From Candidatus Magasanikiibacteriota bacterium (GTDB taxonomy: Bacteria > Patescibacteriota > Patescibacteriia > Magasanikbacterales > UBA922), in contig DOMK01000018.1 of assembly GCA_003510435.1 (NCBI GenBank), forward strand, positions 14,121 to 78,120: a DNA stretch of 64,000 nt, in the 5' to 3' direction. Below the pieces are notes generated by a model. That model made no database searches and was not told the DNA's origin. It was given only the letters and a program-made list of their open reading frames with translations. Position 1 is the stretch's first letter. Every line of letters begins with the position of its first letter. Positions 2,595 to 59,723 of the stretch are shown piece by piece. The translations under genes and the position numbers were made by a program.

Positions 2595-5500
2595 CTATTC
2601 GTGATACCCCGTACCCGCTGGAATCCGACGACCGATAATAACATTTTCTTTCAAGCCTTCTAAATAATCTACTTTGCCAGTAATGGCCGCATTGATAAGA
2701 ACACGAGCGGTCTCTTGGAATGAAGCAGCCGACAAGAAGCTCTGAGTAGAAAGAGAAACTTTGGAAATACCAAGGAATAATTCTCTACCAGCTGATTCTT
2801 TTTTACTATCTTTCAAGGCATCAGTATTAGCGTTCATAAATTGCGTTCGTTCCACTGTCTCACCTGGCAATAAATCTGTCTCACCTGGATCTTCAATATA
2901 AATACGAGAGAACATTTGCTTGATAATAATTTCTACATGTTTATCATTCAAACGTTGACCTTGAGAAGCATAGATTTCTTGAATCTCTTTCAAAATATAA
3001 TTTTGTACTGCATACCGGCCTTTTAACTCATACAACTCTTGCAAATTAATTGCTCCTTCAGTCAACTGGTCTCCTTTCTTTACTTCATCACCAGTCTTTG
3101 CCCACAATTTATAACCCATTGGAGTAATATATTCTTTGGTGTGTCTGCCTTCATAAGTCAGGACTAATTGCTTATCATCCATATGCACTGTGCCTTCGTA
3201 CTTGGCTCTAAATTCCTCACCAGAACTACCCCGAACAATCAAAATATCATCTTGATTTACTTTTTGACCATCCACGACTTGCACTTCATCTTCAGATTTT
3301 ACTTTTACTTTTATTTCATCCACGCCTTCAAAATGAACTTTGACAATTTTTTGTCCTCTCCGACCTTCAAAAATCTTACGGCCAGTTGGGCTAGTAATTA
3401 CTTTACCATCAGCATCTTCAATTTCTACCGTACCATCGACTTCAGACAAGACGGCTTTTCTTTTTGGATTGCGCGCTTCAAACAATTCTTCTACTCTTGG
3501 TAAACCCTGAGTAATATCTCCACCACCAGCGACCCCACCAAGGTGGAAGGTTCTCATGGTAAGTTGGGTACCAGGTTCACCAATGGATTGAGCAGCGATA
3601 ATACCAACGGCTGTACCTTTTTTGACCAATTCACGATTGGACAAATCATAACCATAACATTTTACGCACACGCCTTTTGGTAATTTGCATTTCAATACTG
3701 AACGGACATGAACTTCTTCGACTTCAGTTTCTTCAATTTGACGTACATGTTCTGGAGAAATTACTTCACCCGCTTTTACCAAAACTTTACCTTTGACATC
3801 TTTTACATCTGATAGAACAAACCGACCAAGCACGCGTTCAGAAATCTTTTCACCCATATCAATTGATTGTTCTTTGGTAAACACTTCACCACTATTATCA
3901 CCACAATCTTCATCGAGAACAACCACATCTTGGGCTACATCTACCAAACGACGAGTGAGATAACCAGCGTTGGCCGTACGAAGAGCCGTATCAGACAAAC
4001 CTTTTCTGGTACCGTGAGAAGAGATAAAAAATTCTAGTACATCAAAGCCTTCTTTAAAGTTGCCTTTGACTGGCAATTCAATAATTTCTCCGGATGGTGA
4101 AGCTACCAAGCCTTTCATACCAATCACCTGACCCAGCTGACCCCAAGAACCGCGGGCGCCAGAATCAATCATGGCAAAGACTGAACCATCTTTATTCAAA
4201 GCTTCTTTGTTGAAAGACACAACTTTGTCTTTTACTTCAGTCCAAATTTCCAAAATTTTAGAATGTCTTTCACTATCAGTGAGTAAACCATCTTTATATT
4301 GATCCCAAACTTCTTCTACCCGGTCATCACCTTCAATCAAAATATTTTTCTTTTCGGCAATATGACCAAAGTTGTCCATGCCGAGTGAATAACCAGACTT
4401 GGTAACATATTTGAAACCTAATTTTTTAATTCTATCCAAAAATTTAGCTGTTTCTTCTTGACCATAAAATTCGAGCAAGAGCTTGATGATTTGGGCTAAG
4501 TGTTTTTTGGTAATAGTTTCATTATAATAAGCTAATTTTTCTGGCATGACTTCATTAAACAAAATTCTTCCTATTGAGGTTTCAATAATTGGCCCATCAC
4601 CTTCTGGAAATTTTGCTAAATCATCAAATCGAACTTTGATTCTTTCTTTCAAAGTAATCCGACGAACTTTGTAAGCAAAACGTGCTTCTTTTTCATTGGA
4701 GAAAAATTTCTTTACTTCTTTGGTATCATCTTCAGCGTATTTGGTTAGATAATAACAACCCAGAGCAATATCCTGTTGTGGAGTAGTCACTGGCGCACCT
4801 GTGGCCGGCTTCAATAAATTCTTTTCTGCGGCCATCAAATTTTCTGCTTCCCAACGAGCTTCATCAGTTAGAGGTAAATGAACAGCCATTTGGTCACCGT
4901 CAAAGTCAGCGTTGAAAGCTGGACAAACTAATGGGTGTAAGCGAATCGCTTTACCTTCTACCAATTGTGGTTTGAAAGCTTGGATACCAAGACGGTGCAA
5001 GGTTGGAGCACGGTTTAATAAGACACGACTCTTCTTGGTCATTTCTTCCAAAATATCCCAAACTTCTGGCGCATTGGTTTCAATAAACCGAGAAGCACTC
5101 CTTACATTATGAGCCAATTCGCGTTTTATAATTTCGGCCATAACAAATGGTTTGAATAATTCCAAAGCCATTCTTTTTGGGATACCACATTCGCTAATGG
5201 CCAAATTTGGTCCAACCACGATTACCGAACGACCAGAATAATCTACCCGTTTACCAAGTAAGTTTTGACGGAAACGACCTTGCTTACCTTTCAAAATATC
5301 AGCCAAAGAACGTAACTGTCTTTTTTGACCTGTCGAAGCGGTCACAGTCTTAGAAGCGCGAGCATTGTTATCAATCAAAGCATCTACCGCTTCTTGCAAC
5401 ATACGCTTTTCATTACGACAAATAACTTCTGGAGCATTCAGTTCAATCAACCTTTTCAAACGATTATTACGATTGATCACTCGGCGATACAAATCATTCA

Positions 5501-10390: not shown

Positions 10391-10681
10391 TTAGACGAAT
10401 TTTATTTCCAAAGTCTTGCCCAAAGCTGAAGCCACTTTGACCAACATATCAGTAGAAAAGTTCTGTTTTCCCGCTTCCATTCTCGCCACATTACTTTGAG
10501 TGGTACCAATTTTCTTGGCCAATTGACTTTGTGATACTTTTTTCTTTTTGCGCAATTGCAAAATTTGGTAAGCAATTTCTAACTGTTTACCATACTCATC
10601 AAACATTAGTTTGAATTCAGGATTTTTAAGTTCTCTTTTTAGATCTTCTTCAAAATCATTTGTTTTATTTTTATTCTTCAT
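10391..10681 (-). CDS. XRE-family HTH antitoxin (HigA-like)
   Basis: 96 aa; C-terminal HTH (SQSQLAKKIGTTQSNVARMEAG). Overlaps the upstream toxin gene by 11 nt. Confidence 0.75.
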   Translation of the reverse strand: MKNKNKTNDFEEDLKRELKNPEFKLMFDEYGKQLEIAYQILQLRKKKKVSQSQLAKKIGTTQSNVARMEAGKQNFSTDMLVKVASALGKTLEIKFV

Positions 10682-11036
10682 ATAAATTTGTGTTATTGAT
10701 TATATCAAAATAATATTGTATGGCTTTTTCAATTTCATTTTCCGGAGTCTTGGTGGTTCTCTTAGTAAATCCATTTAATAAAATAATTTTTTTATTAATG
10801 AAAGTAAAATAAAAAATTCTATGATGTTCTTTGGCAAAGTCAACTCTTAACTCTCTTATTTTATTTTTTATATGCCGTGAATATGGTTCGTCCAAATATC
10901 CATTGTTTAACCTTAAATACTCCAGATACTTAAAAACTTTTGCTCTAACTTTTTTGTCTAAACTAAAAATAAATTCCCTGGCCGGTTGTTTTCCATTTGA
11001 ACTATTTTTGTAATAAAATACTTTATATTCTTCCAT
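10671..11036 (-). CDS. RelE/ParE-superfamily toxin (HigB / Gp49-like)
   Basis: 121 aa. Pattern ..IRELRVDFAKEHHRIFYF...KIILLNGFTKRTTKTP typical of HigB/Gp49-like toxins. Toxin-first order as in higBA. Confidence 0.75.
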   Translation of the reverse strand: MEEYKVFYYKNSSNGKQPAREFIFSLDKKVRAKVFKYLEYLRLNNGYLDEPYSRHIKNKIRELRVDFAKEHHRIFYFTFINKKIILLNGFTKRTTKTPENEIEKAIQYYFDIINNTNLYEE

Positions 11037-11052
11037 ATATATTATATATCAT

Positions 11053-11068
11053 ATATCATATATGATAT
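11053..11068. promoter_or_regulatory. 16-bp perfect palindrome atatcatatatgatat; candidate operator of the toxin-antitoxin operon
   Basis: Perfect inverted repeat 17 nt upstream of the toxin ATG. Overlaps the spacer and -10 of a TTGACA(rc 11072-11077)-17-TATGAT promoter on the minus strand. Confidence 0.5.
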
Positions 11069-11103: not shown

Positions 11104-11880
11104 CTAATTTTTATGAGCTTTTACCCCATTCCAAGACAATTCATAAGCCTGACGCATCGCTTCTGCTAAAGGCGCGCTCTCAATAATTATTGACATTTGT
11201 TCAGCATAATTCAAAAATGCTACTTTATTTTTATATATATTAACTTCAATATGTGGATTGAATTTTTCTTTTGGAGCAACCAAAGTTTCTGATAGTTCTT
11301 CCTTGTCTCTGCTTTTGTGAGACATATCCCACTCAGAACCATAGCTAGCAATCCGTCGCGCTTTGATATTTAATTTTACTCGCTTTTTTATATATTCAGG
11401 ATCCACATCAAAAGTATCAAATTTAAAATAATCATCTGTGTTCCATTCCAAAATTTCTTCTGGTTTTTCTAAAAGAGTATCATCATAGACTTTTTGCATG
11501 GCATCTCTGCCTTCATAAAATAATATTTTGGGTTTTTTATCACTCTTATTATAAACCGCTTCTAGTTCTGGTAAAGCTTTTTCCAAATTATTTTTTAAAT
11601 CTTCCACTCCAGAAATTAATTTACTAGGATGATCAGCGACAAATTTCATATTGCCATTTTCCAATGTCTGACCAACAAACCCTCGACCAACTAATTTTTT
11701 CAAAACTGAATAAACTGTAGTGCGTGGCAATCCAGCTTTGACCGCAATATCTTGCGCTGCCGCCTGACCAGATTCCAAAGAGGCAAGATAAACTTTTATT
11801 TCTCGCTTTGACAAACCAAGTTGTGACAATAATCTTTCTATTTGCATATTAATATTAGATGACGAAATATTCGTCGTCAT
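11104..11880 (-). CDS. TrmB-family HTH transcriptional regulator (paralog 1)
   Basis: LGLSKREIKVYLASLESGQAAAQDIAVKAGLPRTTVYSVLKKLVGRGFV is a TrmB-type winged helix. Start is probably Met at 11880 or 11847 rather than the listed ORF start at 11943. Confidence 0.7.
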   Translation of the reverse strand: MTTNISSSNINMQIERLLSQLGLSKREIKVYLASLESGQAAAQDIAVKAGLPRTTVYSVLKKLVGRGFVGQTLENGNMKFVADHPSKLISGVEDLKNNLEKALPELEAVYNKSDKKPKILFYEGRDAMQKVYDDTLLEKPEEILEWNTDDYFKFDTFDVDPEYIKKRVKLNIKARRIASYGSEWDMSHKSRDKEELSETLVAPKEKFNPHIEVNIYKNKVAFLNYAEQMSIIIESAPLAEAMRQAYELSWNGVKAHKN

Positions 11881-11901
11881 TATATAATTAAAAAATGCCT
11901 T

Positions 11902-11942
11902 TGTCAAGAGACATTTTTGATTATGTCTAAAATATTTAGACA
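11902..11942. promoter_or_regulatory. TGTC-N-GACA palindromic operator-like sites upstream of TrmB paralog 1
   Basis: tgtcaagagaca (11902-11913) and tgtctaaaatatttagaca (11924-11942). A similar palindrome sits upstream of paralog 2 at 58723-58739. Confidence 0.45.
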
Positions 11943-12073
11943 ATGACGACGAAAATACTAGATTATTAAACTATTTTCAAATATAATTCATTGTTCAACC
12001 AGAGAAATGGGTCTGTGGTTGAAAACGTTCCTTACTACCCCGCTACCGAGGGCTGATATCGGAGAAAGGGGAA

Positions 12074-12340
12074 ATGATGAGCGGACGAATTTTAATGAAC
12101 GAATACTACTGCACCAACAAAGGATGTATATGGTATTCAGCAGAATTACACAAGGACAAAAAGTATTGCCCAAAATGTGGTTCTCCGGTTGAGTTTGACG
12201 GGGGAGTTCAGTGCCAGTGTGGTGTTAAGTATGCGAGCGGCGAAGAAGGTTTTTGTTCCAAGTGTGGTCGTCCGTTGTCCGAAGCAACGCCCATCACGTC
12301 GCAGAAAGGTTTTTGGTCCCGCATGTTTCATCGTAAGTAA
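12074..12340 (+). CDS. Double zinc-ribbon protein (GC-rich cassette gene 1)
   Basis: 88 aa with four CxxC/Cx4C pairs (CTNKGC, CPKCG, CQCG, CSKCG). GGAGAAAGGGG Shine-Dalgarno. Local GC about 50%. Confidence 0.55.
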   Translation: MMSGRILMNEYYCTNKGCIWYSAELHKDKKYCPKCGSPVEFDGGVQCQCGVKYASGEEGFCSKCGRPLSEATPITSQKGFWSRMFHRK

Positions 12341-12355
12341 TTGGAGAATAAATAC

Positions 12356-12685
12356 ATGAGCAAAGCCTCCAGACACTACAAAGTAGTACGATTACCTAGA
12401 ACGATGACGCCAAAAGAACTGTCTGAATTTGTAGGGGGAATTAAACCGCCACCAAATTCATCTTCTTACCGCGTAGCTGGCCCAACAGCACTAGCTACTT
12501 GGACAATTTTGGGAGGAGGAAAGCACAATAATACTAAGGTAGTTTTTGGCAGTGGCAATCGCTTTGGTAATCTGAGAGATAGGACAGTAATGTCAAGCAC
12601 TCCATGGAGTGTCCTTCCAACCAGACGAAAGACTGTCAACTGGGCAAAAGGAACGTGTGTCCTTCTTATGTCCTTCATCCATTAG
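12356..12685 (+). CDS. Hypothetical protein (GC-rich cassette gene 2)
   Basis: Met at 12356 preceded by a GGAG Shine-Dalgarno. No recognisable domain. Confidence 0.4.
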   Translation: MSKASRHYKVVRLPRTMTPKELSEFVGGIKPPPNSSSYRVAGPTALATWTILGGGKHNNTKVVFGSGNRFGNLRDRTVMSSTPWSVLPTRRKTVNWAKGTCVLLMSFIH

Positions 12686-12760
12686 CGTCGCCTGACCGCG
12701 TTTCAAATAGTCAGGCACTACATCCCTCCGTATAAATATTTTGTACGGAGAGATACAAAA

Positions 12761-12789
12761 AAACATCCCGATTTAATCGGGATGTTTTT
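12761..12789. terminator. Bidirectional rho-independent terminator; member of the tcccgattaaatcggga palindromic repeat family
   Basis: aaacatcccgatttaatcgggatgttttt: 9-bp stem flanked by an A-run and a T-run. Sits between the cassette and the rpsR 3' end. Confidence 0.6.
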
Positions 12790-12792
12790 ATG

Positions 12793-12810
12793 CCTGCCTG
12801 CGCAGGCAGG
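12793..12810. repeat. 18-bp perfect palindrome cctgcctgcgcaggcagg (GC-rich REP-like element)
   Basis: Perfect inverted repeat. A related cctgcct..ggcaggcagg element occurs at 33948-33968 inside a CDS. Confidence 0.4.
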
Positions 12811-20401: not shown

Positions 20402-21889
20402 TTAATTATTATTTTGTGGAGTAAGAATCCTTACTGTGCCATGATTAGCTCGCACAGCCACAACATCACCAGTCTTAATTTGGGTAGTGGCGGTGTGAGT
20501 ATCTATTATACATGGTTTACCAGCCAAACGAGCATTAATAGCGGCATGACAAAGCATTCCCCCAGCATTAGTAATTATGGCCCCGGCTTTTTTTATAATT
20601 TCTAACATTTTGTCATCAGTCATCTCGGTAATCAAAATTTCTCCAGCCTGAAACTTTTTTATATCCTCGGCTTTTTCTATCACCCGAGCAACACCTTGGG
20701 CATAGCCCTGTGCCCCCACCTTGCCAGCAATGGCTCGACCCAATTCACTTTGCTGTAAAATTTCTTGCAATTCTTCATAAACTTTTTTAACTTCCACCCC
20801 TTCAATAATTTTGTAATCCTTACCCAATACCGAAAGCAAAAAACCCTGACTAAAACGATTTTTTAGAATTTGTTTTTTTATTAAGCCACGCAACAAATTG
20901 TCCAATTCTTCAAAAGTCAAAAAAAATAAATATTTCTCATCAATGCCTGAAATTTTTGCCAGCAGTTTAAATAGCTTAATCCACAACTCTTGAACTTGCA
21001 AATTAACTCCCTGCCGATATTCGCGCCATTGTCCCAACTCTTTAAAAAACTCCAAAGGATTGGTATCCAATTTATATTTTTTCAAAATTATCATGGTCAA
21101 CTGGCGGTGTTTTTTGGCACGCGCAATCTCCTCTTTGGTATTTTTATTTTTGTCTAAAACTTTTTCACTGGTTAAAAGTTCAGCAATTTCCATTTGCGAA
21201 AAATTATAAATCTTGCCAATTCGTGCTACTTCTTTGTTGTCATAGCCCAAATCAAAACTATCAATAAATATTGCTGTAGACCAAAACTTTTCCAAAATGC
21301 TTTGCCATTGTTTCAAAAATTCTAATAATTCATTTGTATCCCATTCTGCTGGTAAACCAGTCGCATATTCCTGGCAAAACGCTTCTACTTTTTTTCCATA
21401 ATCAAAAAAACTTTCTTTTAGTTCAAAATGTCGCCGGCTTAATTCTCCATATTCTTTATAAACACTTTCTGCCATCTCTGCAAATGCCAAGGTAGTGTGC
21501 CAAAAAACCTCACAAGTGCCATTTTTAAAATACACATCACAAGTCCCCAGACCCTCATCAAAAAATTTGGGGTTAGGATGAACAATACCAGTAATTCTGG
21601 GCCAAAAAATGATCGGGCTTAAAGCCAATATTTGCCGATACATTTTGGGAGCACTCTCTTCGCTTTGTTTTGGTTCAAACTCCACAATATCATTAATTTT
21701 CAGACCATATCTTTCGCACAGCTTGTCCAGGGTGGAAAACCAGACTCCTTCAGCTTTGCCATGAAAAAGTGCAGTAATAGTATTGCGATTTATGCCAGTT
21801 TCTTGGCTAATTTCAGACATATTCTTGCCAAGTTTCTTAGCAATGGTATGGATTTTTAGTTTAATCATACTTTTTTTCAGTGGAATCAT
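20402..21889 (-). CDS. XRE-type HTH fused to a PEP-utilizing enzyme mobile domain
   Basis: N-terminal HTH (IAKKLGKNMSEISQETGINRNTITALFHG). C-terminus AGGMLCHAAINARLAGKPCIIDT...GDVVAVRANHGTVRIL is a swivel domain with the catalytic His context. Confidence 0.7.
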   Translation of the reverse strand: MIPLKKSMIKLKIHTIAKKLGKNMSEISQETGINRNTITALFHGKAEGVWFSTLDKLCERYGLKINDIVEFEPKQSEESAPKMYRQILALSPIIFWPRITGIVHPNPKFFDEGLGTCDVYFKNGTCEVFWHTTLAFAEMAESVYKEYGELSRRHFELKESFFDYGKKVEAFCQEYATGLPAEWDTNELLEFLKQWQSILEKFWSTAIFIDSFDLGYDNKEVARIGKIYNFSQMEIAELLTSEKVLDKNKNTKEEIARAKKHRQLTMIILKKYKLDTNPLEFFKELGQWREYRQGVNLQVQELWIKLFKLLAKISGIDEKYLFFLTFEELDNLLRGLIKKQILKNRFSQGFLLSVLGKDYKIIEGVEVKKVYEELQEILQQSELGRAIAGKVGAQGYAQGVARVIEKAEDIKKFQAGEILITEMTDDKMLEIIKKAGAIITNAGGMLCHAAINARLAGKPCIIDTHTATTQIKTGDVVAVRANHGTVRILTPQNNN

Positions 21890-21997
21890 TAATAATCAGT
21901 GTAATCAATGTTACGCATATTATAGTATATTCAGATAACTTTGTCAATATTTCACAGTTTTTGTAATGGTTTTATTACAAAAATGACCATAATATCA

Positions 21998-22026
21998 TTG
22001 ACAATTAGGGGAAAAATGATTATAAT
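21998..22026 (+). promoter_or_regulatory. Perfect-consensus sigma70 promoter TTGACA-17-TATAAT
   Basis: TTGACA 21998-22003, 17-nt spacer, TATAAT 22021-22026. Drives the leader and ORF at 22155. Confidence 0.55.
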
Positions 22027-22033
22027 ATCCTGT

Positions 22034-22154
22034 TTTACCTAGTGGGTAAGACGCTGATCTTTAAAAACTACTGTTTCCTGGAGGGGAATAGTAGAAAAAA
22101 TATTGTTTTACCCAGTTGGTGAAACAAAACGCTCTTTACAACGGAGGACATAAC
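22034..22154 (+). promoter_or_regulatory. ~120-nt 5' UTR with two direct repeats tgttttaccYagtNggtRa...acgct and a GGAGG Shine-Dalgarno
   Basis: Copy 1: ctgttttacctagtgggtaagacgct (22031-22056). Copy 2: ttgttttacccagttggtgaaacaaaacgct (22103-22133). GGAGG lies 8 nt before the ATG. Confidence 0.35.
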
Positions 22155-22580
22155 ATGAGCGACTGGTTTTTGCCGACAATTCCCGAAATTCTTGTCGGGA
22201 AAAAAATCGCATTCGTGTGGCCAGAAGAAAAGGGCCAGAGTGATTGGGAAAAGATAGAAGGATATGGGGCACCGGAACATTTCGTGGCTCGCGACATTCG
22301 CGAGGGGCTGAGCATTCCTCTCGAGAGAATTGATTATATAGTTCTTTACCAGGGAAAATCTGCAATTTGCACGTACAGAATATTGAGATACCTTAAAGCC
22401 TGTGGGTTCCCCGCGAAAAAAGTATTTGTTGCCCTGTGTGGATGTTCAAGGGAAGACCACGAAATCGTCATGAAAGACATGGGTTTCGAAAGTCTCGCAG
22501 GGGTGATTCCAGTACCCTGCCAAGCTTTCCATCATGTGATTTGTCAGTGGGTTCTCGCACACCACGCTTCTCCTTCTTAG
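22155..22580 (+). CDS. Hypothetical protein (GC-rich island, 141 aa)
   Basis: Strong Shine-Dalgarno; local GC about 50% against a ~33% background. No known domain. Confidence 0.5.
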   Translation: MSDWFLPTIPEILVGKKIAFVWPEEKGQSDWEKIEGYGAPEHFVARDIREGLSIPLERIDYIVLYQGKSAICTYRILRYLKACGFPAKKVFVALCGCSREDHEIVMKDMGFESLAGVIPVPCQAFHHVICQWVLAHHASPS

Positions 22581-22736
22581 ATCACTAGGTGCACAACCTG
22601 GATGATCATCGGGTTTTGCTCGATTACCCTTCAAGTCTGCACAGACAAATCGAGCCTTCCATTGTTTTATTCTTCCCTCCTTCGCTCTACCAAGCTACGG
22701 AGGATAATAAAAGGATAAAATTTAGAAAGAAAAAAA

Positions 22737-22761
22737 CAAAACTCCCCACAAAGGAGTTTTT
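22737..22761 (+). terminator. Terminator hairpin aaaactcc-ccacaaa-ggagtttt
   Basis: 8-bp stem followed by a T-run; same motif as 18923-18954. Confidence 0.5.
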
Positions 22762-22784
22762 GTGATATAATATTACCAACACAT

Positions 22785-22809
22785 AACACGAGACACATAT
22801 CACGTAACA
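22785..22809 (-). repeat. Interspersed repeat; 25-nt exact copy (reverse orientation) of 59763-59787
   Basis: rc of aacacgagacacatatcacgtaaca equals tgttacgtgatatgtgtctcgtgtt, identical to 59763-59787. Diverged copies at 27214-27250 and 32891-32920. Confidence 0.6.
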
Positions 22810-22845
22810 ATTGATATGTGATATGTGTTATATGATACGTGAATT

Positions 22846-40948: not shown

Positions 40949-41550
40949 AACTAATTCCTACAATTATCCAAGATGAAAGTACTGACGTGGTGCTGATGTT
41001 AGGTTATATGAATGATGAGTCACTCAAAAAAACTAAAAAGACAAAAAAAGTCTGGTTTTATAGTCGCTCAAAAAAACGTCTCTGGCTTAAAGGTGAAACC
41101 AGTAAAAATTATTTATTTGTAAAAAGCATAGACTTTGATTGTGACAAAGATACCATTCTTATTAAAGTAAAACCCGCTGGACCAACCTGCCACACTGGTA
41201 ATTATTCTTGTTTTAAAAAAAAGCCTGAGATAAATCCCTTGGTTGAATTGTTTTCCACAATAGAAGATAGAAAAAAGAATCTACCTAAAAATTCTTACAC
41301 CACCAGTTTATTTAAAGGTGGTATAAATAAAATTATTGGTAAAGTAATGGAAGAAACTACTGAGGTAATTAATGCCTCTATCCGAGAAACAAAAAAACGT
41401 TTAATAGAAGAAACGGTCGATTTACTTTACCACCTTTTTGTTTTATTAAGTAAAAAAAATATTAAATTGGAAGATGTTTTTAAGGAGATTGAAAAACGCA
41501 GAAACAAAAAATCCCGGGCTTCATCTGCGACTACGCCCGGCAAGCCCTAA
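40945..41550 (+). CDS. hisI: Bifunctional phosphoribosyl-AMP cyclohydrolase / phosphoribosyl-ATP pyrophosphatase
   Basis: HisI motif CHTGNYSCF followed by a HisE-like C-terminus. The last ~13 codons are supplied by repeat element R1. Confidence 0.85.
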
Positions 41551-41607
41551 CATCTTTTCTAAAAAAAGACTGACCTGCCCAGCGTAGCTTTAGCGAAGCC
41601 TGGGTTT
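41507..41607 (+). repeat. ~100-nt structured repeat element R1 (second copy R2 at 53926-54035)
   Basis: Conserved blocks gactacgcccggcaagc and tgcccagcgtagctttagcgaRgcYgggtt around a variable loop; outer stem cccgggcttc/gaagcctggg. Overlaps the hisI 3' end. Confidence 0.6.
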
Positions 41608-41705: not shown

Positions 41706-42329
41706 TTAGATTGCCAGACACTCTGCGACGATATAGCGATTCATCACCGCCATACCATCGACCATCTCACCCTCCTCAATTCTGTGTGTCTCTACAATCT
41801 TAAAACTACCCCAAAGAACATAATCACGCAAAGAATTCTCTGAAAAGTAGAAATCTTCACGCTTACCCCCGTTACCATTCCCATTTAAGATTTTCACGGG
41901 AAATGGCTCATCACCTTCGGCCACTCTAACAGCCAAAAGCAATGGAGCTCCAAGACACATAACTCTACGCAATTCTCGTACAGATGCCATAATCTCTTGT
42001 ACACTATGCATGTTATGCAATACTCTCCAAGAGAGTACTGCACTAAAATAATCATCTGGAAAAGGAAGCTGAGAAAATCTTTGTACCTCAACAAAATTTT
42101 CCAAACCAATAGTAGCTTGACGAGCCCATGGTCCGTCTACTGCGACAACTTCTCTACCGAGAGATCGCAGAACTGATAGATTTCGCCCTCTCCATGCTCC
42201 CCAGTCCAGAACTGGGTTGCGTTCTGAACTCGTAAGGTGGTGGAGCAGGAATTCTTGACCGGAACCAGCCACGAACCCACTAGGTTCATAGCCGATTTCA
42301 TACTTACTCCCTCCGTGCCACTTATCCAT
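41706..42329 (-). CDS. Class I SAM-dependent methyltransferase-like protein (GC-rich island)
   Basis: Degenerate motif I VLDWGAWRGRN, acidic post-I VAVD, motif II-like region. About 48% GC. Strong Shine-Dalgarno AAGGGAGGAAAAAG. Confidence 0.5.
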   Translation of the reverse strand: MDKWHGGSKYEIGYEPSGFVAGSGQEFLLHHLTSSERNPVLDWGAWRGRNLSVLRSLGREVVAVDGPWARQATIGLENFVEVQRFSQLPFPDDYFSAVLSWRVLHNMHSVQEIMASVRELRRVMCLGAPLLLAVRVAEGDEPFPVKILNGNGNGGKREDFYFSENSLRDYVLWGSFKIVETHRIEEGEMVDGMAVMNRYIVAECLAI

Positions 42330-42414: not shown

Positions 42415-44199
42415 CTAACTATATTTTTTTCGCAAAATTTTTCCTGCGCCTACTTCATTTTTTAATTTTAAGTAAGCTTCATCCAACGGCACATTAGCTT
42501 GCGAACCAGGAGCAAAACCACAATCCGGATTTAAAATAATTCTGTTCGGTGCCACATACTGCAAAGCTTTTTCTACTCGTGTCACAATTTCTTCTGGTGT
42601 ATCAATGTGTTCAAATCTGCACTCCACACAACCAAGACCTACTTTAAATTTTTCTGGTAAATTTTTTAAGGCGCTAAAATCACCGGCAACTGGGATGCTA
42701 TATTCCAACACAAATTGATCTACATCAATGGCGCTAATGGCAGAAATAATAGCCTCATAGCCACCTTTACCAATCCAACCTTGTCTACCTTTATTGCGCC
42801 GACATAAATGTAATGCTGTTTCTATTCCGTCAATTCCTTTCACAACTTCATTAACTACTTGACAGGCATAATTTAACTCTTTTTTCGGGTCAGAAAATTG
42901 AGTTCGTAATTCTTTATCAACAAATAGACAAATATGAGGATCATCAATTTGCACAATATTAGCACCAGCCTCCCGTAATAAAATAATTTCATTGCGAAGT
43001 ATAGGAATAAGGGCTTCCACAAAAGCCTCACGAGTTGGATAGGCTTTTATAGATTTTTTTTCATCCCACAATCGTTGACCAAGAAGATAAGGCGACGGCA
43101 GGCACACTTTAATTTTTTTAATAGTATGTAATTTCAAAAATTTTGCTTCACGTGCAAAAAACCCAGGTTTATCATAAACCAATTTTTCTTCCACCGTATG
43201 CCATGAACGGCCATCACTTGAATTAAAATAATGTTTAAAACCAGAAGCTATATTGGCTATTACTCCCACATAAGATTTGCGTCGCCATTCTCCATCAGAA
43301 ATTACATCCAAACCAGCCTGCTCTTGCAGTGCTATGGCATAAGCCACTGCCTTATCCAAAATAGGAGAAAAAGGATCACCCTCATTTAGAATAACATCTT
43401 GAACAAATTGTGGTCGCGGCAAACTACCTACAACACTTGCTGGAAATAGCTGTGAGGCAGGTTTCCAAAATTTTTGAGCATAAGCATAATCTTCCAGAGT
43501 ATCAATTTCAATATAGTCACCATGAGTAGTAACAAAATTAATTTTTACACCTTGCTGAACCAAATAATTTAAATAATGTAAAAGATAAGCACGATTTAGC
43601 GGAATGTTTTTTTCAAACTGAAAATTTTTTGGAAGGTTACAAAAATATTCTTTAAATATTTTAGCACCGGCTCGAGAAAATTTAGCCAAGCCAATAAATT
43701 CTCCTGTTGCCAAATCATCTGGAATTGTGCGGCTAAGAGTAGTAATTAGTTCGCCATCCGCTGTTACTTTTTCTGCATCAATGGAGGGGTGAAGACTACG
43801 ATGTACATACCGAGCACGCCAATCAGTATCTACTGCTATGGTAATATCCGCCGGGCTAGCCAATAGTTTTTTAACAATCTCTGGTTTATACAGAATATCC
43901 GAATATGAGCAGATAAAACCATCGCCCATATCATTTATCGCGTAAAAGAGCGATTTTAAAATATTATTATTTTCCCAATTAGTATTATGTCGAAAAGTAA
44001 AATAAGGATATTGTTTTCTTACAACGTCAATTAAATAACCCCCAATAAAAACAATATCCCGTAGTTCTTTTGCTTGATGCGCTTCCAAAATCCAATCTAA
44101 TATCCTTTTATTGTGAACACGAGTAAAAGTTTTTGGTTCAGTATTAGTTAGATGCTCCAACCGCTTACCACGGCCAGCACCTATAATAATTGTTTTCAT
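42415..44199 (-). CDS. Fusion protein: N-terminal sugar-phosphate nucleotidyltransferase plus C-terminal MetE-like (cobalamin-independent methionine synthase family) Zn-dependent domain
   Basis: N-terminus MKTIIIGAGRGKRLEHLT (G-rich NTP-transferase loop). C-terminus VGSLPRP, VQIDDPHI, LHLCRRN, LEYSIP, NPDCGF align with the MetE C-terminal IGSFPQT, IQIDE, HMCY, ENS, NPDCGL Zn-site motifs. Confidence 0.75.
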   Translation of the reverse strand: MKTIIIGAGRGKRLEHLTNTEPKTFTRVHNKRILDWILEAHQAKELRDIVFIGGYLIDVVRKQYPYFTFRHNTNWENNNILKSLFYAINDMGDGFICSYSDILYKPEIVKKLLASPADITIAVDTDWRARYVHRSLHPSIDAEKVTADGELITTLSRTIPDDLATGEFIGLAKFSRAGAKIFKEYFCNLPKNFQFEKNIPLNRAYLLHYLNYLVQQGVKINFVTTHGDYIEIDTLEDYAYAQKFWKPASQLFPASVVGSLPRPQFVQDVILNEGDPFSPILDKAVAYAIALQEQAGLDVISDGEWRRKSYVGVIANIASGFKHYFNSSDGRSWHTVEEKLVYDKPGFFAREAKFLKLHTIKKIKVCLPSPYLLGQRLWDEKKSIKAYPTREAFVEALIPILRNEIILLREAGANIVQIDDPHICLFVDKELRTQFSDPKKELNYACQVVNEVVKGIDGIETALHLCRRNKGRQGWIGKGGYEAIISAISAIDVDQFVLEYSIPVAGDFSALKNLPEKFKVGLGCVECRFEHIDTPEEIVTRVEKALQYVAPNRIILNPDCGFAPGSQANVPLDEAYLKLKNEVGAGKILRKKYS

Positions 44200-44311: not shown

Positions 44312-44535
44312 ATTTAGTTTGCAATAAAATTCCATAAAAAAACTTCTAACCATAGGTAGAAGTAGTATATAAAACATCTTCCCCTTATGGGTTGGAATTA
44401 CCACCTTGTCTTAAAGATAGGTTGGTAGAGAGTCATTGGGCCAATTCCCTCGTCTCTTCTTGATATAAATTAATTGTCTGTATTTAGATTATCACCACAT
44501 CATTAAATCGTCAAACAACGACTGTGGATAACTAA

Positions 44536-53881: not shown

Positions 53882-53925
53882 CATTGATTACACTGATTGT
53901 GAGTTGAGATTACACAGATTAAAAC

Positions 53926-54035
53926 AAAAAACCCCGGTCTTTGTCTATGACTACGCCCGGCAAGCTAGATAATCTTTATATCAAAGAATTCAGCTTGCCC
54001 AGCGTAGCTTTAGCGAGGCTGGGGTTTTATTTTTG
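53926..54035 (+). repeat. ~100-nt structured repeat element R2 (copy of R1); also a terminator with T-run
   Basis: accccggtctttgtctatgactacgcccggcaagc...ttgcccagcgtagctttagcgaggctggggttttatttttg. Stem positions maintained relative to R1 by compensatory and wobble changes. Confidence 0.6.
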
Positions 54036-57284: not shown

Positions 57285-57836
57285 TTAAAATAATGAAGTA
57301 AATTCAAATTTTTTCAAATCACTCACTGTAAGAAGACGTGATCTATTTACATACTTTTGCATACCCAAACTAGGATTGTGAGAAAAACCAATATATTCTA
57401 TTTCTTTATCAAGATGACGAATTTTACTTATAGCTGGAATTAAATCTGTATCAGAAGAAATTAGAATAGCAGTATCATACAAATCATCATAAGCGCCTAC
57501 TAATAAATCTACTGCCAATTTTACATCAACACCTTTTTCATGATAAACACCACCACTTTTCATCATATAACCATTCTTTACAACAAAATTTTGATTTGAA
57601 GATTGCAAGTGCGATAATAATCTTTGTTGATTTTTTCTTAATTCTTGACCTTTTTCATTACCTTCTTCTGCCCTAATAATACCAATATAATAACGACAGG
57701 AAATGATTTCTCTTCCTCCAGCCAACCATTTTGATAAACTACGATAATCAAATTTAACTAAATTGGACAAACCCAATTCTTTTACTTTGTGATAAAAATT
57801 ACTTCCATCTATATAAATTGCAACTCTATTATTCAT
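57285..57836 (-). CDS. NYN-domain (LabA-like) protein
   Basis: VAIYIDGSNFYH and a D-rich core typical of NYN/PIN-like nucleases. Confidence 0.8.
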   Translation of the reverse strand: MNNRVAIYIDGSNFYHKVKELGLSNLVKFDYRSLSKWLAGGREIISCRYYIGIIRAEEGNEKGQELRKNQQRLLSHLQSSNQNFVVKNGYMMKSGGVYHEKGVDVKLAVDLLVGAYDDLYDTAILISSDTDLIPAISKIRHLDKEIEYIGFSHNPSLGMQKYVNRSRLLTVSDLKKFEFTSLF

Positions 57837-57842
57837 AAAATA

Positions 57843-57893
57843 AAAAACCCACCGTGTGTCTTCTCAAGGAAGACTCCAGAGCGGGTGTTTTTA
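57843..57893 (-). terminator. Rho-independent terminator of TrmB paralog 2 (bidirectional)
   Basis: Minus strand reads aaaaacacccgctctggagtcttccttgagaagacacacggtgggttttttatt: nested hairpin followed by a U-run. Confidence 0.55.
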
Positions 57894-57985
57894 GCTAAAG
57901 TAATTATACGATAGTCTGTAGTTTTTGTCAATAGCTATAGTGGACAGACTAAAACCGCTCCTGGATATATTAAACCACAAAATTT

Positions 57986-58714
57986 TTACTCTGGCAATGT
58001 ATCCCAAAGCATTTCAAAAACCGACCGAAAAACATCCACCATAGCTGGCACAGCAATCACTACGGCCAAAGATGATAACTCTGGACTAACCACCAAAATT
58101 TTATCTTTAAAAATATCAATTGAGCTTTTGAATTTATATTTTGCTGGTAGATATTTATAACTGCGCAGTAATTTTATATCAGGAGGATTTATCTTCTTTG
58201 ATTCAGCAGTAATTAAAAGCTTGGTATGAATGCCGGCTTGCGCGCGATCTTTACGATACCGCACAAACCACTCAGCATCTAACTTTTCCCAATTGGGCAC
58301 ACTACCAATAACATAATAAGATTTATTTTTAAAATCATTCAAAACGCCGGTATAAAATTTTTTTAATTCATGCACGGTCTCAATAAAACGCAAACCTCCC
58401 ATTTGTAATTTCTTTTTTTCCATGGATTCAAGCACGGGCACTAAATTATTAAAAGCGTCTAATTTTTTTTCAAAATAATCTGCCACGCGCTGTGGTTTTT
58501 CCGCATAAAAAAATTGTTTGCTTTTGCGGTAATAAGTTGTCACAAAACCTTTTTCTGCCAATGATTTTAAAAGAGCATAAACCGTAGTGCGTTTTATGCC
58601 AACACTTTTGGCAACCGCACTGGCAATTGAGCCACCAATCTTCAGCAAACCTAAGTACACTTCTGCTTCGTGTTCATTTAATCCTAATTCTTTTAAGGCT
58701 GTTTTTTCTTGCAT
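57986..58714 (-). CDS. TrmB-family HTH transcriptional regulator (paralog 2)
   Basis: LGLNEHEAEVYLGLLKIGGSIASAVAKSVGIKRTTVYALLKSLAEKGFV; paralogous to 11104-11880. Confidence 0.7.
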   Translation of the reverse strand: MQEKTALKELGLNEHEAEVYLGLLKIGGSIASAVAKSVGIKRTTVYALLKSLAEKGFVTTYYRKSKQFFYAEKPQRVADYFEKKLDAFNNLVPVLESMEKKKLQMGGLRFIETVHELKKFYTGVLNDFKNKSYYVIGSVPNWEKLDAEWFVRYRKDRAQAGIHTKLLITAESKKINPPDIKLLRSYKYLPAKYKFKSSIDIFKDKILVVSPELSSLAVVIAVPAMVDVFRSVFEMLWDTLPE

Positions 58715-58722
58715 ATTTTGTT

Positions 58723-58739
58723 GTCAAAATTATTAGACA
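58723..58739. promoter_or_regulatory. Palindrome tgtcaaaattattagaca (TGTC-N10-GACA) 9 nt upstream of the TrmB paralog 2 start
   Basis: Same architecture as tgtctaaaatatttagaca upstream of paralog 1. Confidence 0.45.
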
Positions 58740-58886
58740 CTTTTTACTGTTAATAATATTATAGCTTATTTTAGCTATTTTGTCAAATATAGCTGTTTAA
58801 AATGGTTGACGATAAAGCCAAATAACATTAAAATAACTAGTCAAACTATAGTGGTTTGATAACGATCTTTACAAGGAGAAACGAAA

Positions 58887-59237
58887 ATGATCTCAAACGC
58901 GGTTCATACAGATGACCTGAGCGGAGTCGACTGGACGCTTCTTCACCAGGTTCAATTTGGTTTTGACCCCTTTTTCCCCCATGGCGCTTCACTTTTTTTT
59001 GACTACCCAGGAGTACAATGCAACGGGCAATGGACAACCAACATAGTCATTGAAAAATATAGACTAGGTTGGACTGCTGGAATGCTCCAAGGGAAAGAAA
59101 AACCAGATTTCATTCAAGGACTAGAGAAGCTGTCTGGTAAAACTTCTTCAAGCAGAGGAGAACTTAAAAGGCTCAACATAGATCGTGCCTGGCGTGTTTG
59201 GACGTTTCATGTTTTCTACGAACCAGGAAGGGGATAG
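58887..59237 (+). CDS. Hypothetical protein (GC-rich cassette gene 1, 116 aa)
   Basis: AAGGAGA Shine-Dalgarno; about 50% GC; no known domain. Confidence 0.5.
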   Translation: MISNAVHTDDLSGVDWTLLHQVQFGFDPFFPHGASLFFDYPGVQCNGQWTTNIVIEKYRLGWTAGMLQGKEKPDFIQGLEKLSGKTSSSRGELKRLNIDRAWRVWTFHVFYEPGRG

Positions 59238-59238
59238 T

Positions 59239-59625
59239 ATGAAGAAGAACACTGTTCTCGATCCTGAACAGGTCAAAGCCGTCTTTATAGACTGTCTCTT
59301 TCAAGATGGCGAGGATACCACCGACCACATCGGAATCAAAGGCATCACCAAGGACGTCTGGTTTCACTCCAAACGTCTCCAAAGCCACAAGGCCGAGATC
59401 GAAGTGATGCTGGGAGAACTCCCTGACGAATTCAAAAAGTCCGGTGGTGGCTGGTCATTCCTCAAGGCGGACAAAGACAGACACGGCCACCAGTGGACCA
59501 TGCTCCACCAACGTGTAGAACAGCTCTTTATGCTCGGCATGGGAATTGGTAAGGTTCAGTACCAGATGCCGAAAGAAGTATGGCCAGCTCTGCCAGGTGG
59601 CATGCCATACTACATCATCAATTAG
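59239..59625 (+). CDS. Hypothetical protein (GC-rich cassette gene 2, 128 aa)
   Basis: GGAAGGGGA Shine-Dalgarno, start 2 nt after the upstream stop; about 52% GC. Confidence 0.5.
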   Translation: MKKNTVLDPEQVKAVFIDCLFQDGEDTTDHIGIKGITKDVWFHSKRLQSHKAEIEVMLGELPDEFKKSGGGWSFLKADKDRHGHQWTMLHQRVEQLFMLGMGIGKVQYQMPKEVWPALPGGMPYYIIN

Positions 59626-59723
59626 TTTGTCTTTCCATCCTAAACGCTCTTTCATCGTGTGCCGGACACTTCAAACCGGCACTCCCTCAAAGTATTTTAC
59701 TTTATTGAATATTTTGAGAAAAA

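Follow-up and report, generated by a model that had tools for sequence, protein, structure and literature searches.

The stretch of DNA analysed here, referred to as the window, comprises 64 kb of a Candidatus Magasanikbacteria contig from a groundwater bacterium and has an overall GC content of 34.7%. Within it, the gene of a TrmB-family regulator (trmB1, 11104-11847, minus strand, 247 aa, ATG start) is divergent from two small open reading frames (ORFs) on the plus strand: ZnR (12074-12340), which encodes an 88-aa double zinc-ribbon protein, and p109 (12356-12685), an orphan ORF of uncertain coding status. This first cassette is closed by a 3′ module of two hairpins and a terminator. The layout recurs at a second place in the window, where the paralogue trmB2 (57986-58714, minus strand, 242 aa) is divergent from the ORFs p116 (58887-59237, plus strand) and p128 (59239-59625, plus strand). 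Both units are embedded among housekeeping genes. The divergent arrangement and its recurrence had been proposed in a first-pass annotation made from the letters of the DNA; the elements it described were all recovered at or close to the positions it gave them, the two regulators and four ORFs being real features of the sequence, and the pattern as a whole exceeds chance.

The TrmB regulators and their control regions

TrmB1 matches the winged-helix family PF01978 at its N-terminus with an E-value of 1.7e-16 and 60.3 bits (gathering cutoff 25.6), and TrmB2 matches the same family with 5e-16 and 58.8 bits (cutoff 25.6), the two proteins being 24% identical over their full length (BLASTP E 2e-16). 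A longer, TTG-started ORF reaching 11943 was rejected as trmB1; the orthologues and the public gene call begin at MQIERLL. There are 373 homologues of TrmB1 at E<=1e-20, with orthologues 58-90% identical across Magasanikbacteria, Uhrbacteria and Doudnabacteria, and further TrmB paralogues, present in related loci, share only 24-34% identity with TrmB1, TrmB2 and each other. A protein was considered TrmBL2-like if it had about 260 aa, a winged helix, a long coiled-coil helix and a C-terminal alpha/beta domain devoid of a sugar-binding subdomain. The modelled order of domains in TrmB1 (winged helix, coiled coil, C-terminal domain) corresponds to this TrmBL2 architecture: the best PDB match of the AF2 model (pLDDT 93) in Foldseek is TrmBL2 5bpd (full length, E 3e-13), and the top matches, TrmBL2 5bpd, 5box and 5bqt, extend over 257-273 columns, with a TM-score of only ~0.4 because the domain orientation differs. 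The profile of the TrmB1 family also matches TrmB 3qph at 1.9e-9. TrmB proteins of the sugar-sensing type are defined by the C-terminal effector domain PF11495 (PMC4158304), for which a Pfam search at E<=0.1 gave no match, and the NCBIfam TrmB/TrmBL1 equivalogs reach 31-38 bits against cutoffs of 500-650, which places the protein outside that type. In PADLOC, the winged helices of TrmB1 and TrmB2 match the Csa3/CasR HTH weakly.

Palindromic operators and autoregulation are typical of the TrmB family. The trmB1 promoter (11879-11907, minus strand) has the form TTGACA-N17-TATAAT with 12/12 consensus positions, and its TTTGTCAA box is kept in the alignment of related loci. Its -10 box and start-site region are overlapped by a candidate operator, O1 (11859-11880), formed by the palindrome ATGACGAAATATTCGTCGTCAT, which occurs once in the 64-kb window and is recognisable in most of the 13 loci with TrmB1 orthologues, with degenerate forms in L069 and L085 and none in L074. 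Five exact matches to the O1 pattern in viral contigs, none of them beside a TrmB gene, were attributed to chance. A second candidate operator, O2 (11936-11956), reads TTAGACAA-TGACGACGAAAAT in the window and TTCGTCA-N4-TGACGAAAAT in relatives, and is located directly upstream of the -35 element of the cargo promoter. The spacing between O1 and O2 is 84-88 bp in nine independently fetched loci, with about 86 bp corresponding to roughly eight helical turns.

The promoter of the first cassette (11959-11996, plus strand) consists of a weak -35 element (TAGATT), a -10 element (TATAAT, 11982-11987) and the start-site box TCATTGTTC (11988-11996). The -10 element and the box, in the form TCAYTGTTC, are common to the window, L072, L083, L073, L071 and L075, while in loci with different cargo the similarity stops after the box and the sequence is divergent downstream. 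O2, the cargo promoter and the start-site box keep a fixed spacing to trmB1 and are conserved along with it, so that the divergent promoter belongs to the conserved unit. The 5′ leader of the ZnR cassette (11994-12073, plus strand) contains a 12-bp hairpin (11994-12023) and a segment CCCC..CCGA..TCGG..GGGG which ends in the Shine-Dalgarno (SD) sequence; it is kept in L072 and L083, and the hairpin shows a C-G to T-A compensatory change. The centre of the candidate operator O2 falls near -50 of the cargo promoter, the -35 element of which is weak in the window. Such an operator position is typical of activators, and regulation by TrmB1 at O2 could have either sign.

The divergent control region of the second unit (58758-58834) comprises the sigma-70 promoter of trmB2 (58758-58786, minus strand, 12/12 consensus), a palindrome ATAGCTTATTTTAGCTAT (58761-58778) spanning the -10 box and spacer of this promoter, a further TATAGCT (58788-58794) and the second cargo promoter (58806-58834, plus strand, TTGACG-N17-TAAAAT). 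Four of the nine TATAGCT sites of the window fall within 57429-58794. The palindromic intergenic region that the units were first thought to share is common to both as far as palindromes and 12/12 trmB promoters go, whereas the operator sequences are unlike, being of the TGACGAA type in copy 1 and probably, judged from one genome, of the TATAGCT type in copy 2.

Cassette genes and 3′ modules

The four cassette genes are compositionally atypical. Compared with 52 background genes of the window (mean GC 0.342, sd 0.043), their GC content is raised to 0.457 (ZnR), 0.448 (p109) and 0.450 and 0.504 (cassette 2), with z = 2.5-3.8; the value of about 50% initially given for cassette 1 was too high, the peak 300-nt window reaching 0.473. 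Their GC3 z-scores run from 1.9 to 6.3, and in codon usage they rank, with the ORF 22116-22580, as the top five outliers among 56 genes (z -2.4 to -5.9), so that the foreign composition proposed for the cargo was upheld by the GC and codon check. SD-like motifs, described early on as atypical for the window, precede 4/4 cassette genes and 5/52 other genes. The ORF 22116-22580 constitutes a third GC-rich island, with a similar layout of promoter and 3′ hairpin and a neighbour other than TrmB. An exact 25-mer is common to 59763-59787 and 22785-22809.

A double zinc-ribbon protein was recognised by two CxxC..CxxC knuckle pairs and the Pfam gathering score. ZnR matches Zn_Ribbon_1 (PF13240) in two stretches with 29.4 bits (cutoff 25) and DZR (PF12773) with 24.4 bits, just below the cutoff of 27.3. 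Its exact sequence is absent from the public protein collection, and the gene is present only in the three closest genomes, with orthologues of 63% (L072) and 39% (L083) identity, both with an intact reading frame. Eight cysteines are found in the window and in L072, L083 being without one CxxC of the first ribbon, and the cysteine ligands of the second ribbon are kept in 3/3 genomes at a pN/pS of 0.43-0.51. ZnR is considered a real gene because the frame and the second-ribbon cysteines are conserved and pN/pS is about 0.45. The second ORF, p109, has an SD sequence 9 nt upstream and a composition of GC2>GC1>GC3; it finds only itself among 5.8 billion proteins and has no match in Pfam, PHROG, NCBIfam, PADLOC or phage searches. 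L072 and L083 lack it, and in both of them the ZnR stop is directly followed by the 3′ module. A direct repeat flanking p109 in the manner of a target site is not significant, its score being reached in 670/2000 shuffles. The four other contigs that bear p109 are 100% identical to the window and show no within-population polymorphism of the cargo, which makes a comparison of strains uninformative.

In the second cassette, p116 has an AGGAG SD sequence and a stop codon 1 nt before the start of p128. Its 90%-identity cluster has one member, searches of Pfam, PHROG, NCBIfam and PADLOC gave no match, no relative was found in phages or viral contigs, and among 63 loci it never lies beside a p128 homologue. 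Both p109 and p116 could be non-functional ORFs. By contrast, p128 (GC 0.50, GC3 0.63) has 281 protein homologues and a confidently predicted fold, and it belongs to the phage family phrog_26039, aligning over residues 11-127 to profile positions 7-127 of 129 (E 1.3e-29), with relatives detected by tblastn in 19 phage records, among them a Variovorax phage at 57%. Its distribution is patchy, with 63 genomic loci that have no conserved neighbours. At most of the ~36 CPR-labelled loci, p128 exceeds its flanks by 5-23 GC points, and at a few by no more than +1 to +5; the difference is within about 3 GC points in most non-CPR hosts. A conserved pairing of p116 or TrmB with p128 was rejected, a TrmB gene within 5 kb occurring once in 63 loci at a distance of 3.7 kb; apparent neighbour clusters of p128 are overlapping frames of p128 itself, and a hammerhead ribozyme downstream of its homologues stayed below threshold (15.7 bits, gathering score 34). 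None of the four cassette proteins matches a PADLOC defence model. With ZnR in three genomes, p109 without a homologue and p128 patchy, the cargo does not consist of core genes, which supports the first-pass reading of it as foreign.

Each cassette ends in a 3′ module on the plus strand. In cassette 1 (12670-12792) it consists of a lead-in, hairpin 1 (12690-12716), a linker GGCACT..CCCTC, hairpin 2 (12722-12754) and a terminator (12756-12792) flanked by A/T runs, and it is followed by an 18-bp palindrome, CCTGCCTGCGCAGGCAGG (12793-12810), of which the window holds one copy; the stacked hairpins and terminator reported for this end of the cassette were thus confirmed. In cassette 2 (59626-59757) the parts are a relic of a ZnR tail, hairpin 1 (59661-59680), the linker GGCACTCCCTC, hairpin 2 and the terminator (59726-59757). 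The motif TTCAAA..GGCACT..CCCTC is found exactly twice in the window, once directly after each cassette, with 0 copies expected by chance, and it is with these two copies that the interspersed repeat of the first-pass annotation is best identified.

The modules were compared by pattern searches, single-sequence folds and shuffled pairwise alignments, MAFFT being unreliable on stems of variable length. Their lead-in is GTTCYTTYGYG and their hairpin stems begin with GCCKG. Without mismatch, GTTCYTTYGYGYSSCC occurs among 77 loci only behind the cargo of L068, L072 and L073 (twice). The cassette 1 module is related to that of L073b (z 5.5) and its terminator is 80% identical to L068 over 45 nt (E 4.6e-5), the cassette 2 terminator shares 82.5% identity with L073a across 40 nt (E 2.5e-7), and the similarity between the two modules of the window is weak (z 2.8). 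Modules with significant pairwise similarity stand behind cargo of different kinds and behind more than one TrmB paralogue; none is recognisable in L069-L071, L075 and L085, which are more distant. The flank of cassette 2 starts with a match to the last codons of a ZnR gene and aligns to the 3′ ends of the ZnR cassettes of L072 (z 10.5) and L083 (z 15.3), a score reached by 0/500 shuffles. This ZnR relic behind p128 points to a replacement inside a pre-existing cassette frame.

Turnover of the cargo and its possible explanations

The comparison set comprises thirteen loci with TrmB1 orthologues, most of them on short contigs. Throughout this set the control region is conserved and ten unrelated cargo types are found next to it, which is what the early suggestion of a modular unit had led one to expect. 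Cargo unrelated to ZnR is present in L068, L069, L070, L071, L073, L074/75, L076/77, L084 and L085/86, and even at a TrmB1 identity of 81-85% three types occur, namely ZnR (L083), an 80-aa ORF (L068) and a 137-aa ORF (L073). All-against-all BLASTP of the cargo at E<1 gives only a generic zinc-ribbon similarity between ZnR and the cargo of L071, and Pfam recognises only zinc ribbon, NUDIX and, weakly, DUF364 among the cargo proteins. Some of the cargo is ordinary (radical SAM, Nudix), and in L071, L076 and L085 it is not GC-rich. Similarity breaks off at the start-site box on one side and the 3′ module on the other.

Across these loci, TrmB1 and its candidate operators are resident, conserved features, and the variable part is only the transcribed stretch between the conserved start-site box and the conserved 3′ module. 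The idea that regulator and cargo move as one unit is not supported as it was worded, given their housekeeping surroundings and the absence of recombinases and transposases from the gene calls and Pfam matches of the annotated window parts (~2.4-22.6 and 25.4-64 kb); no recombinase is called in the related loci examined either. Horizontal transfer is frequent in groundwater Patescibacteria (PMC12455944).

On balance, we lean towards a resident TrmBL2-like local regulator in control of a slot, the contents of which change through horizontal transfer. A dimer or tetramer of TrmB1 would bind O1 over its own -10 box and start site and thereby repress itself. It would also bind O2, ~86 bp away and upstream of the divergent -35 element, and through O2, possibly by looping to O1, would set the expression of the divergent unit until a signal alters binding. 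The slot would extend from the start-site box TCAYTGTTC to the 3′ module of two hairpins and terminator and would hold small, compositionally foreign genes with their own SD sites which differ among related genomes, while TrmB2 would control a second slot with an orphan ORF and a phage-family protein. Most likely the cargo enters by horizontal transfer and is exchanged through recombination in or beside the conserved flanks, which recur behind several TrmB paralogues. The cargo includes several zinc-ribbon or small membrane proteins and one member of a phage family, from which it may be guessed that it consists of accessory small proteins tied to interactions with phages or with the cell envelope. 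Since the module is unrecognisable in distant loci and some cargo is ordinary, the slot may be confined to a subclade.

Ordinary gene turnover beside a conserved regulator may also account for part of the pattern. Taken as a complete explanation, this would make TrmB1 a conserved autoregulator with an unrelated gene upstream of it, and the cargo a series of independent, sporadic acquisitions; the 3′ hairpins would belong to a terminator or REP-like family that is specific to the lineage and unconnected with the cassettes. It is an account to be taken seriously even if it is probably not the right one. Synteny on the other side of trmB1 varies among the loci as well, the cargo of four loci (L071, L075, L076, L085) is ordinary or host-like in GC, the island 22116-22580 has a like promoter and 3′ hairpins beside a non-TrmB gene, and horizontal transfer is common in these organisms (PMC12455944). 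Turnover of this kind does not, however, account for a cargo promoter, O2 and start-site box held at a fixed distance from trmB1, for similarity that breaks at this box and at the 3′ module, for 3′ motifs that occur only behind cassettes (in the window and among 77 loci), or for the ZnR-tail relic, which shows replacement in an existing frame.

The same sharp boundaries would suit a site-specific cassette system, in which the start box (..TGTTC..) and the lead-in GTTCTTTCGCG with its hairpin act as attI/attC-like recombination sites and cassettes lacking a promoter are excised and inserted behind TrmB-controlled promoters by a recombinase encoded elsewhere. Such a system agrees with the hairpin that ends unrelated cargo, which is structured, imperfectly conserved and has covarying stems, with the related modules behind different TrmB paralogues and with the position of p109, exactly between ZnR stop and 3′ module relative to L072 and L083. 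Yet no integrase or recombinase is called in the annotated window parts or the related loci examined, the lead-in GTTCTTT departs from the integron core GTTRRRY, the two genes of one cassette have no separate 3′ module between them and the direct repeat around p109 is not significant, all of which makes it decidedly improbable. In a broader form, the start-site box and 3′ module would be the ends of an exchangeable cassette and each TrmB paralogue would guard a platform for capture and expression, which we regard as unlikely. Such a platform would have an integron-like function with a dedicated repressor for each slot in Magasanikbacteria and relatives, exchange taking place through a recombinase or, once DNA has been taken up, through homologous recombination of the flanks that the slots share. 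Finally, the GC-rich stretches might be structured non-coding RNAs in which the ORFs are incidental, as 11990-12810 folds better than shuffled sequences (z -3.5), p109 combines GC2>GC1>GC3 with a lack of homologues and none was detected for p116. The fold z-score is carried largely by the terminal hairpins, though, and Rfam 15 gives nothing at the gathering score or at E<=5 beyond noise on terminator hairpins. The frame, most cysteine ligands and a pN/pS <1 in ZnR, the 281 homologues and confident fold of p128 and the properly spaced SD motifs of 4/4 ORFs leave this a very remote prospect for the stretches as a whole; it is excluded for ZnR and p128 and would apply, if at all, to p109 and p116.

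CPR bacteria (Patescibacteria) have tiny genomes and few studied regulators, and to our knowledge almost nothing has been reported on how they control acquired genes. The locus is a testable regulatory unit, with one regulator, two candidate operators at fixed spacing and two back-to-back promoters, and it points to a specific site in the genome at which small foreign genes are installed and replaced time and again, with flanks conserved well enough to be searched for across metagenomes. If the slot is real, it would provide a handle on accessory genes of CPR that turn over fast and may take part in phage or host interaction, a way to study horizontal transfer in organisms that cannot be cultured alone, and help in assigning a function to the widespread phage family phrog_26039. 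The platform, if it exists, would be a previously undescribed way for genome-reduced CPR to sample foreign or phage genes under tight control. Should there be no slot, the locus would still be a clean example of a predicted TrmBL2-like autoregulator in bacteria.

Comparison with known systems

Within the TrmB/TrmBL2 family, the likeness lies in the winged helix, coiled coil and C-terminal domain. TrmB1 differs from archaeal TrmB in being bacterial (CPR) and ~247 aa long, in having no PF11495 and in scoring far under the equivalog cutoffs of NCBIfam. TrmBL2 is a chromatin protein of high abundance and low sequence specificity. Unlike it, TrmB1 is accompanied by a conserved layout of two candidate operators, with O1 unique in 64 kb, and this specific pair argues for TrmB1 as a predicted site-specific regulator rather than a protein that coats DNA non-specifically.

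BrxR/CapW-type WYL regulators reportedly adjoin diverse phage-defence systems. They resemble the present case in combining a conserved winged-helix regulator, an inverted-repeat operator at its own promoter and variable, horizontally moving cargo alongside. TrmB1 belongs to a different family, without a WYL domain, and is divergently oriented, and the cargo of the proposed TrmB slots amounts to one or two tiny genes without a match to defence models, followed by a conserved 3′ module which is absent from BrxR systems.

Integron cassettes are inserted at an attI/Pc platform and carry attC at the 3′ end of each cassette. As in integrons, the promoter of the proposed TrmB slot stays in place while the ORFs behind it vary, these having ribosome-binding sites but no promoters of their own, and unrelated cargo is followed by an imperfect 3′ hairpin. 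The slot differs in having one 3′ module per slot instead of one per gene and a dedicated divergent regulator; no IntI is found in the annotated window parts or related loci, and the 3′ modules contain no GTTRRRY/RYYYAAC core pair (no AAC/GTT). Phage morons and single-gene islands, lastly, are comparable in that their genes are small and foreign, bring along their own expression signals and terminator and are atypical in composition, and p128 is a member of a phage family. In contrast to morons, the cargo described here is located outside a prophage, between housekeeping genes, and on a resident, conserved and apparently regulated promoter.

Regulators and control region

Both units consist of a TrmB-family gene on the minus strand that is divergent from two small genes, with trmB1 (11104-11847) facing ZnR (12074-12340) and p109 (12356-12685) and trmB2 (57986-58714) facing p116 (58887-59237) and p128 (59239-59625), as described in the first-pass annotation. 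The window, with an overall GC content of 34.7%, corresponds to a contig from a groundwater metagenome that carries the annotation Candidatus Magasanikbacteria (locus tags DEB09_). Unit 1 has a Gp49/HTH toxin-antitoxin-like pair adjoining rpoB-rpoC on one side and the rpsR-ssb-rpsF operon on the other, while unit 2 is flanked by NYN and cob(I)alamin adenosyltransferase genes on one side and a class II ribonucleotide reductase on the other. Gene calls for the annotated stretches (about 2.4-22.6 and 25.4-64 kb) include no integrase, no transposase and no structural gene of a phage. The Gp49-like toxin and HTH_3 antitoxin pair (10391-11068), directly downstream of trmB1, carries an 11/12 promoter of its own and, at 11034-11068, an AT-rich cluster of palindromes. 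Elsewhere in the window, an intergenic GC-rich repeat roughly 105 nt long is found at 41502-41607 and 53922-54027 (blocks 80-91% identical); the former copy, the most GC-rich spot outside the cassettes (0.52), adjoins a GC-rich methyltransferase gene (41706-42329, GC 0.45). A SAM riboswitch (RF00162, 64.5 bits; 44371-44469, minus strand) lies upstream of a Meth_synt_2 (MetE-like) gene (42415-44199).

TrmB1 and TrmB2 are both well over the Pfam TrmB threshold and share 24% identity over their full length. TrmB1 starts at the ATG at 11847 (247 aa), in agreement with the public gene call and all orthologues, and belongs to a tight orthologue group (58-90% identity) from Magasanikbacteria, Uhrbacteria, Doudnabacteria and unclassified Patescibacteria. 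Its AF2 model (pLDDT 93) matches TrmBL2 over the whole length (E 3e-13), with TrmB next, and the family profile matches TrmB 3qph over the DNA-binding domain and coiled coil. By these models, TrmB1 belongs to the TrmB family on account of its DNA-binding domain, and its architecture is TrmBL2-like. A sugar-sensing TrmB identity is rejected, as the effector domain model PF11495 has no match in TrmB1. Two of the fetched loci, L073 and L085, each encode an additional TrmB paralogue that is divergent from a small-ORF cassette of its own, and the paralogues are mutually 24-34% identical. Full-text searches gave nothing on TrmB in combination with CPR or Patescibacteria.

TrmB1-orthologue loci were gathered by three routes, giving thirteen distinct loci with DNA, the window counted, and nearly all of them have a common control-region layout. 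The trmB1 promoter is a perfect TTGACA-N17-TATAAT, whose -10 box and start site are covered by the candidate operator O1, ATGACGAAnnnTTCGTCGTCAT; O1 is degenerate in L069 and L085 and was not found in L074. The second candidate operator, O2, (TTCGTCA-N4-)TGACGAAAAT, is located immediately 5' of the divergent promoter's -35 box, centred near -50, at a distance of 84-88 bp from O1 in nine loci, and a conserved TCAYTGTTC start-site box follows the -10 box of that promoter. Because O1 overlaps the -10 box and start site of the trmB promoter, its position predicts autorepression by TrmB1. When bound to O2, TrmB1 might repress the cargo by looping to O1, or else activate it. O1 occurs only once in the window, which makes TrmB1 look like a local regulator and disfavours a role as a chromatin protein. 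TrmB2 has a candidate operator of different sequence, as judged from the window genome: the palindrome ATAGCTTATTTTAGCTAT extends across the -10 box and spacer of the perfect trmB2 promoter, and four of the window's nine TATAGCT sites are grouped around it. The TrmB1 control region is both conserved and experimentally tractable.

Composition and turnover of the cargo

The cassette GC content, previously put at about 50%, is well above background with a measured range of 45-50%, against a mean of 34.2% (sd 4.3) in the 52 other window genes (z = 2.5-3.8). By codon-usage log-odds, the five most atypical of 56 genes are the four cassette genes and the ORF at 22116-22580 (z -2.4 to -5.9). The Shine-Dalgarno (SD) sequences are atypical for the window as had been noted, with an SD-like motif before 4/4 cassette genes versus 5/52 others. 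As 47 of the 56 window genes have no such motif within 20 nt of the start codon, host translation initiation appears to proceed largely without SD, which is why the SD-bearing cassette genes stand out; their SD sites are supplied by the cargo itself. The stacked hairpins reported to close cassette 1 are likewise present, as two hairpins 3' of p109 with a terminator flanked by A/T runs, and a unique palindrome is also found downstream of p109.

A third GC-rich island (21890-22840) has the layout of the TrmB cassettes next to a regulator of a different type. Its ORF (22116-22580; 154 aa, GC 0.467, codon-usage z -4.3) has no firm family match and is preceded by a TTGACA-N17-TATAAT promoter. An HTH_26/PEP-utilizer gene (20402-21889) runs divergently from it, and the island terminates in a CCCTCC hairpin and terminator.

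Loci with TrmB1 orthologues diverge completely 3' of the start-site box. The double zinc ribbon ZnR is the cargo in the window, L072 and L083, which share a cassette leader whose hairpin shows a compensatory change. At the other loci the cargo is an unrelated 80-aa ORF (L068, TrmB1 81% identical), a 137-aa ORF (L073, 85%), a 103-aa membrane protein (L084), proteins of 144 aa (L070), 231 aa (L069) and 188 aa (L071), a 177-aa and a 117-aa protein (L085/86), a B12-radical SAM enzyme (L074 and L075) or a Nudix-like protein behind a GC-rich leader (L076/77). In an all-against-all comparison, the only similarity among cargo types was of the generic zinc-ribbon kind. In 9 of 14 cargo units, L073 counting as two, GC is at least 9 points above the unit's own locus. 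On L076 (3560-3815, minus strand), a tRNA-like sequence lies directly downstream of the TrmB1-controlled divergent promoter, with acceptor stem and D arm 5', T arm and acceptor strand 3' and a GC-rich insert of about 190 nt between them; it is uncalled by ARAGORN and Rfam and could represent either a tRNA with an intron or the remains of a tRNA.

Among 1.8 billion representatives, searched exhaustively, ZnR has one true homologue, P0122 (63% identity), which on L072 adjoins a TrmB1 orthologue about 90% identical; the remaining matches are generic zinc-ribbon repeats. A third, more diverged copy (39%) is found on L083, where TrmB1 is 85% identical. In all three genes the reading frame is conserved and the second ribbon retains its Cys ligands, the first ribbon of the L083 copy has lost one CxxC, and pN/pS is 0.43-0.51. 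ZnR is thus a real gene, evolving much faster than its regulator. Its exact sequence is absent from the 15-billion-protein public collection, and public contigs have no gene called at 12074-12340, so it is a conserved small gene missed by annotation. The p109 ORF has no homologue among 5.8 billion proteins and is missing from L072 and L083, in which the 3' module directly follows the ZnR stop codon. Its codon-position GC pattern is odd, but an SD is present at 9 nt, and it is regarded as a probable orphan gene, as yet unproven. No relative of p116 was detected in Pfam, PHROG, NCBIfam, PADLOC, phage/viral contigs, the 63 p128 loci or 90%-identity clusters.

The p128 protein has 281 homologues and matches phrog_26039 (E 1.3e-29); its family occurs in 19 phage records, jumbo phages included, the closest being from a Variovorax phage (57% identity). 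Its fold is predicted with confidence, with no informative structural relative found, and it has no conserved neighbour across 63 genomic loci. In most of about 36 CPR-labelled loci (including L005-L036, L039, L042 and L044) the homologue is 5-23 GC points above its flanks, in a few +1 to +5, with GC3 up to 0.88, while in most non-CPR hosts, some exceptions apart, it differs from the host by no more than about 3 points. It looks as if p128 has been repeatedly re-introduced into CPR genomes from a GC-rich pool. A tmRNA or tRNA gene, a classic hotspot for integration, precedes the homologues on L022 (4144-4512) and L026 (5001-5384) by 130-280 nt, and on L035 (1943-2326) a tRNA lies about 1.1 kb upstream. 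A hammerhead-like core, CTGATGAGTCCAAAAGGACGAAA, follows the homologue in L022, L026, L027 and L035 (sub-threshold in Rfam: Hammerhead_1 15.7 bits, gathering score 34).

The 3' module

A shared layout follows the cargo in both window units, L068, L072, L083 and the two units of L073, and more loosely in L084. Its lead-in (GTTCYTTYGYGYSSCC or variants of it) is followed by hairpin 1, in which the stem is of GCCKG type and the remaining pairs covary, then by the linker CACT..CYCTY, hairpin 2 and a terminator with an A-tract and a T-tract. The window has two occurrences of TTCAAA..GGCACT..CCCTC, one precisely at each cassette end, and among 77 loci searched a mismatch-free lead-in motif was found only 3' of the cargo of L068, L072 and L073 (twice). 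In shuffle-controlled local alignments, several pairs of modules with unlike cargo, some even from different TrmB paralogues, reach z = 5.5-15, and BLAST relates the terminators of unit 2 to the first of L073 and of unit 1 to L068. Most telling is the sequence right behind the p128 stop, which aligns with the last ZnR codons and 3' module of L072 (z 10.5) and L083 (z 15.3); the TrmB2 slot thus retains the tail of a ZnR-type cassette, its body replaced by p116-p128 or p116-p128 placed before it. Old co-descent is ruled out as the source of near-identical non-coding 3' sequence, because the unit proteins are only 24% identical; the similarity points either to units having exchanged sequence more recently or to a module under strong constraint.

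Other repeats lie near these sites. An exact 25-nt repeat, TGTTACGTGATATGTGTCTCGTGTT, occurs in inverted orientation at 22785-22809 (minus) and 59763-59787 (plus), each copy just past a GC-rich island's terminator (chance expectation 0), with related GATATGTG repeats at 22816 and 27228. On L068, a 29-nt palindromic repeat, GTAGAGACGAGGCAnTGCCTCGTCTCTAC, at 4530-4560 (trmB 5' region) and 4965-4995 (just past the cargo ORF), forms an interspersed hairpin repeat on both sides of the cassette.

Proposed exchange of cargo and known systems

The evidence fits a resident regulated slot whose contents are replaceable and horizontally acquired. In substance, then, the earlier proposal of a modular regulator plus foreign cargo holds, except that the regulator is the fixed part and there is no sign of the whole unit moving. 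The simplest idea is that cargo would be exchanged by homologous recombination between shared flanks after DNA uptake. A site-specific system could possibly do the same, but no recombinase was called in the annotated parts of the window or in the related loci, the units have no integron-like core, and a suspected repeat flanking p109 is not significant. For the distant loci, in which the 3' module is unseen and the cargo ordinary, plain gene turnover is a viable explanation. For groundwater Patescibacteria, horizontal transfer has been documented in a general way (PMC12455944), and the cassette-like turnover pattern could be surveyed at scale.

As the cargo includes a zinc-ribbon protein, small membrane proteins and a phage family, an accessory role at the phage or envelope interface is suggested; PADLOC defence-system models match none of ZnR, p109, p116 and p128. 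Although the defining features of neither are present here, the closest analogues of this arrangement are integron platforms and the WYL regulators (BrxR/CapW) that lie beside variable defence cargo.
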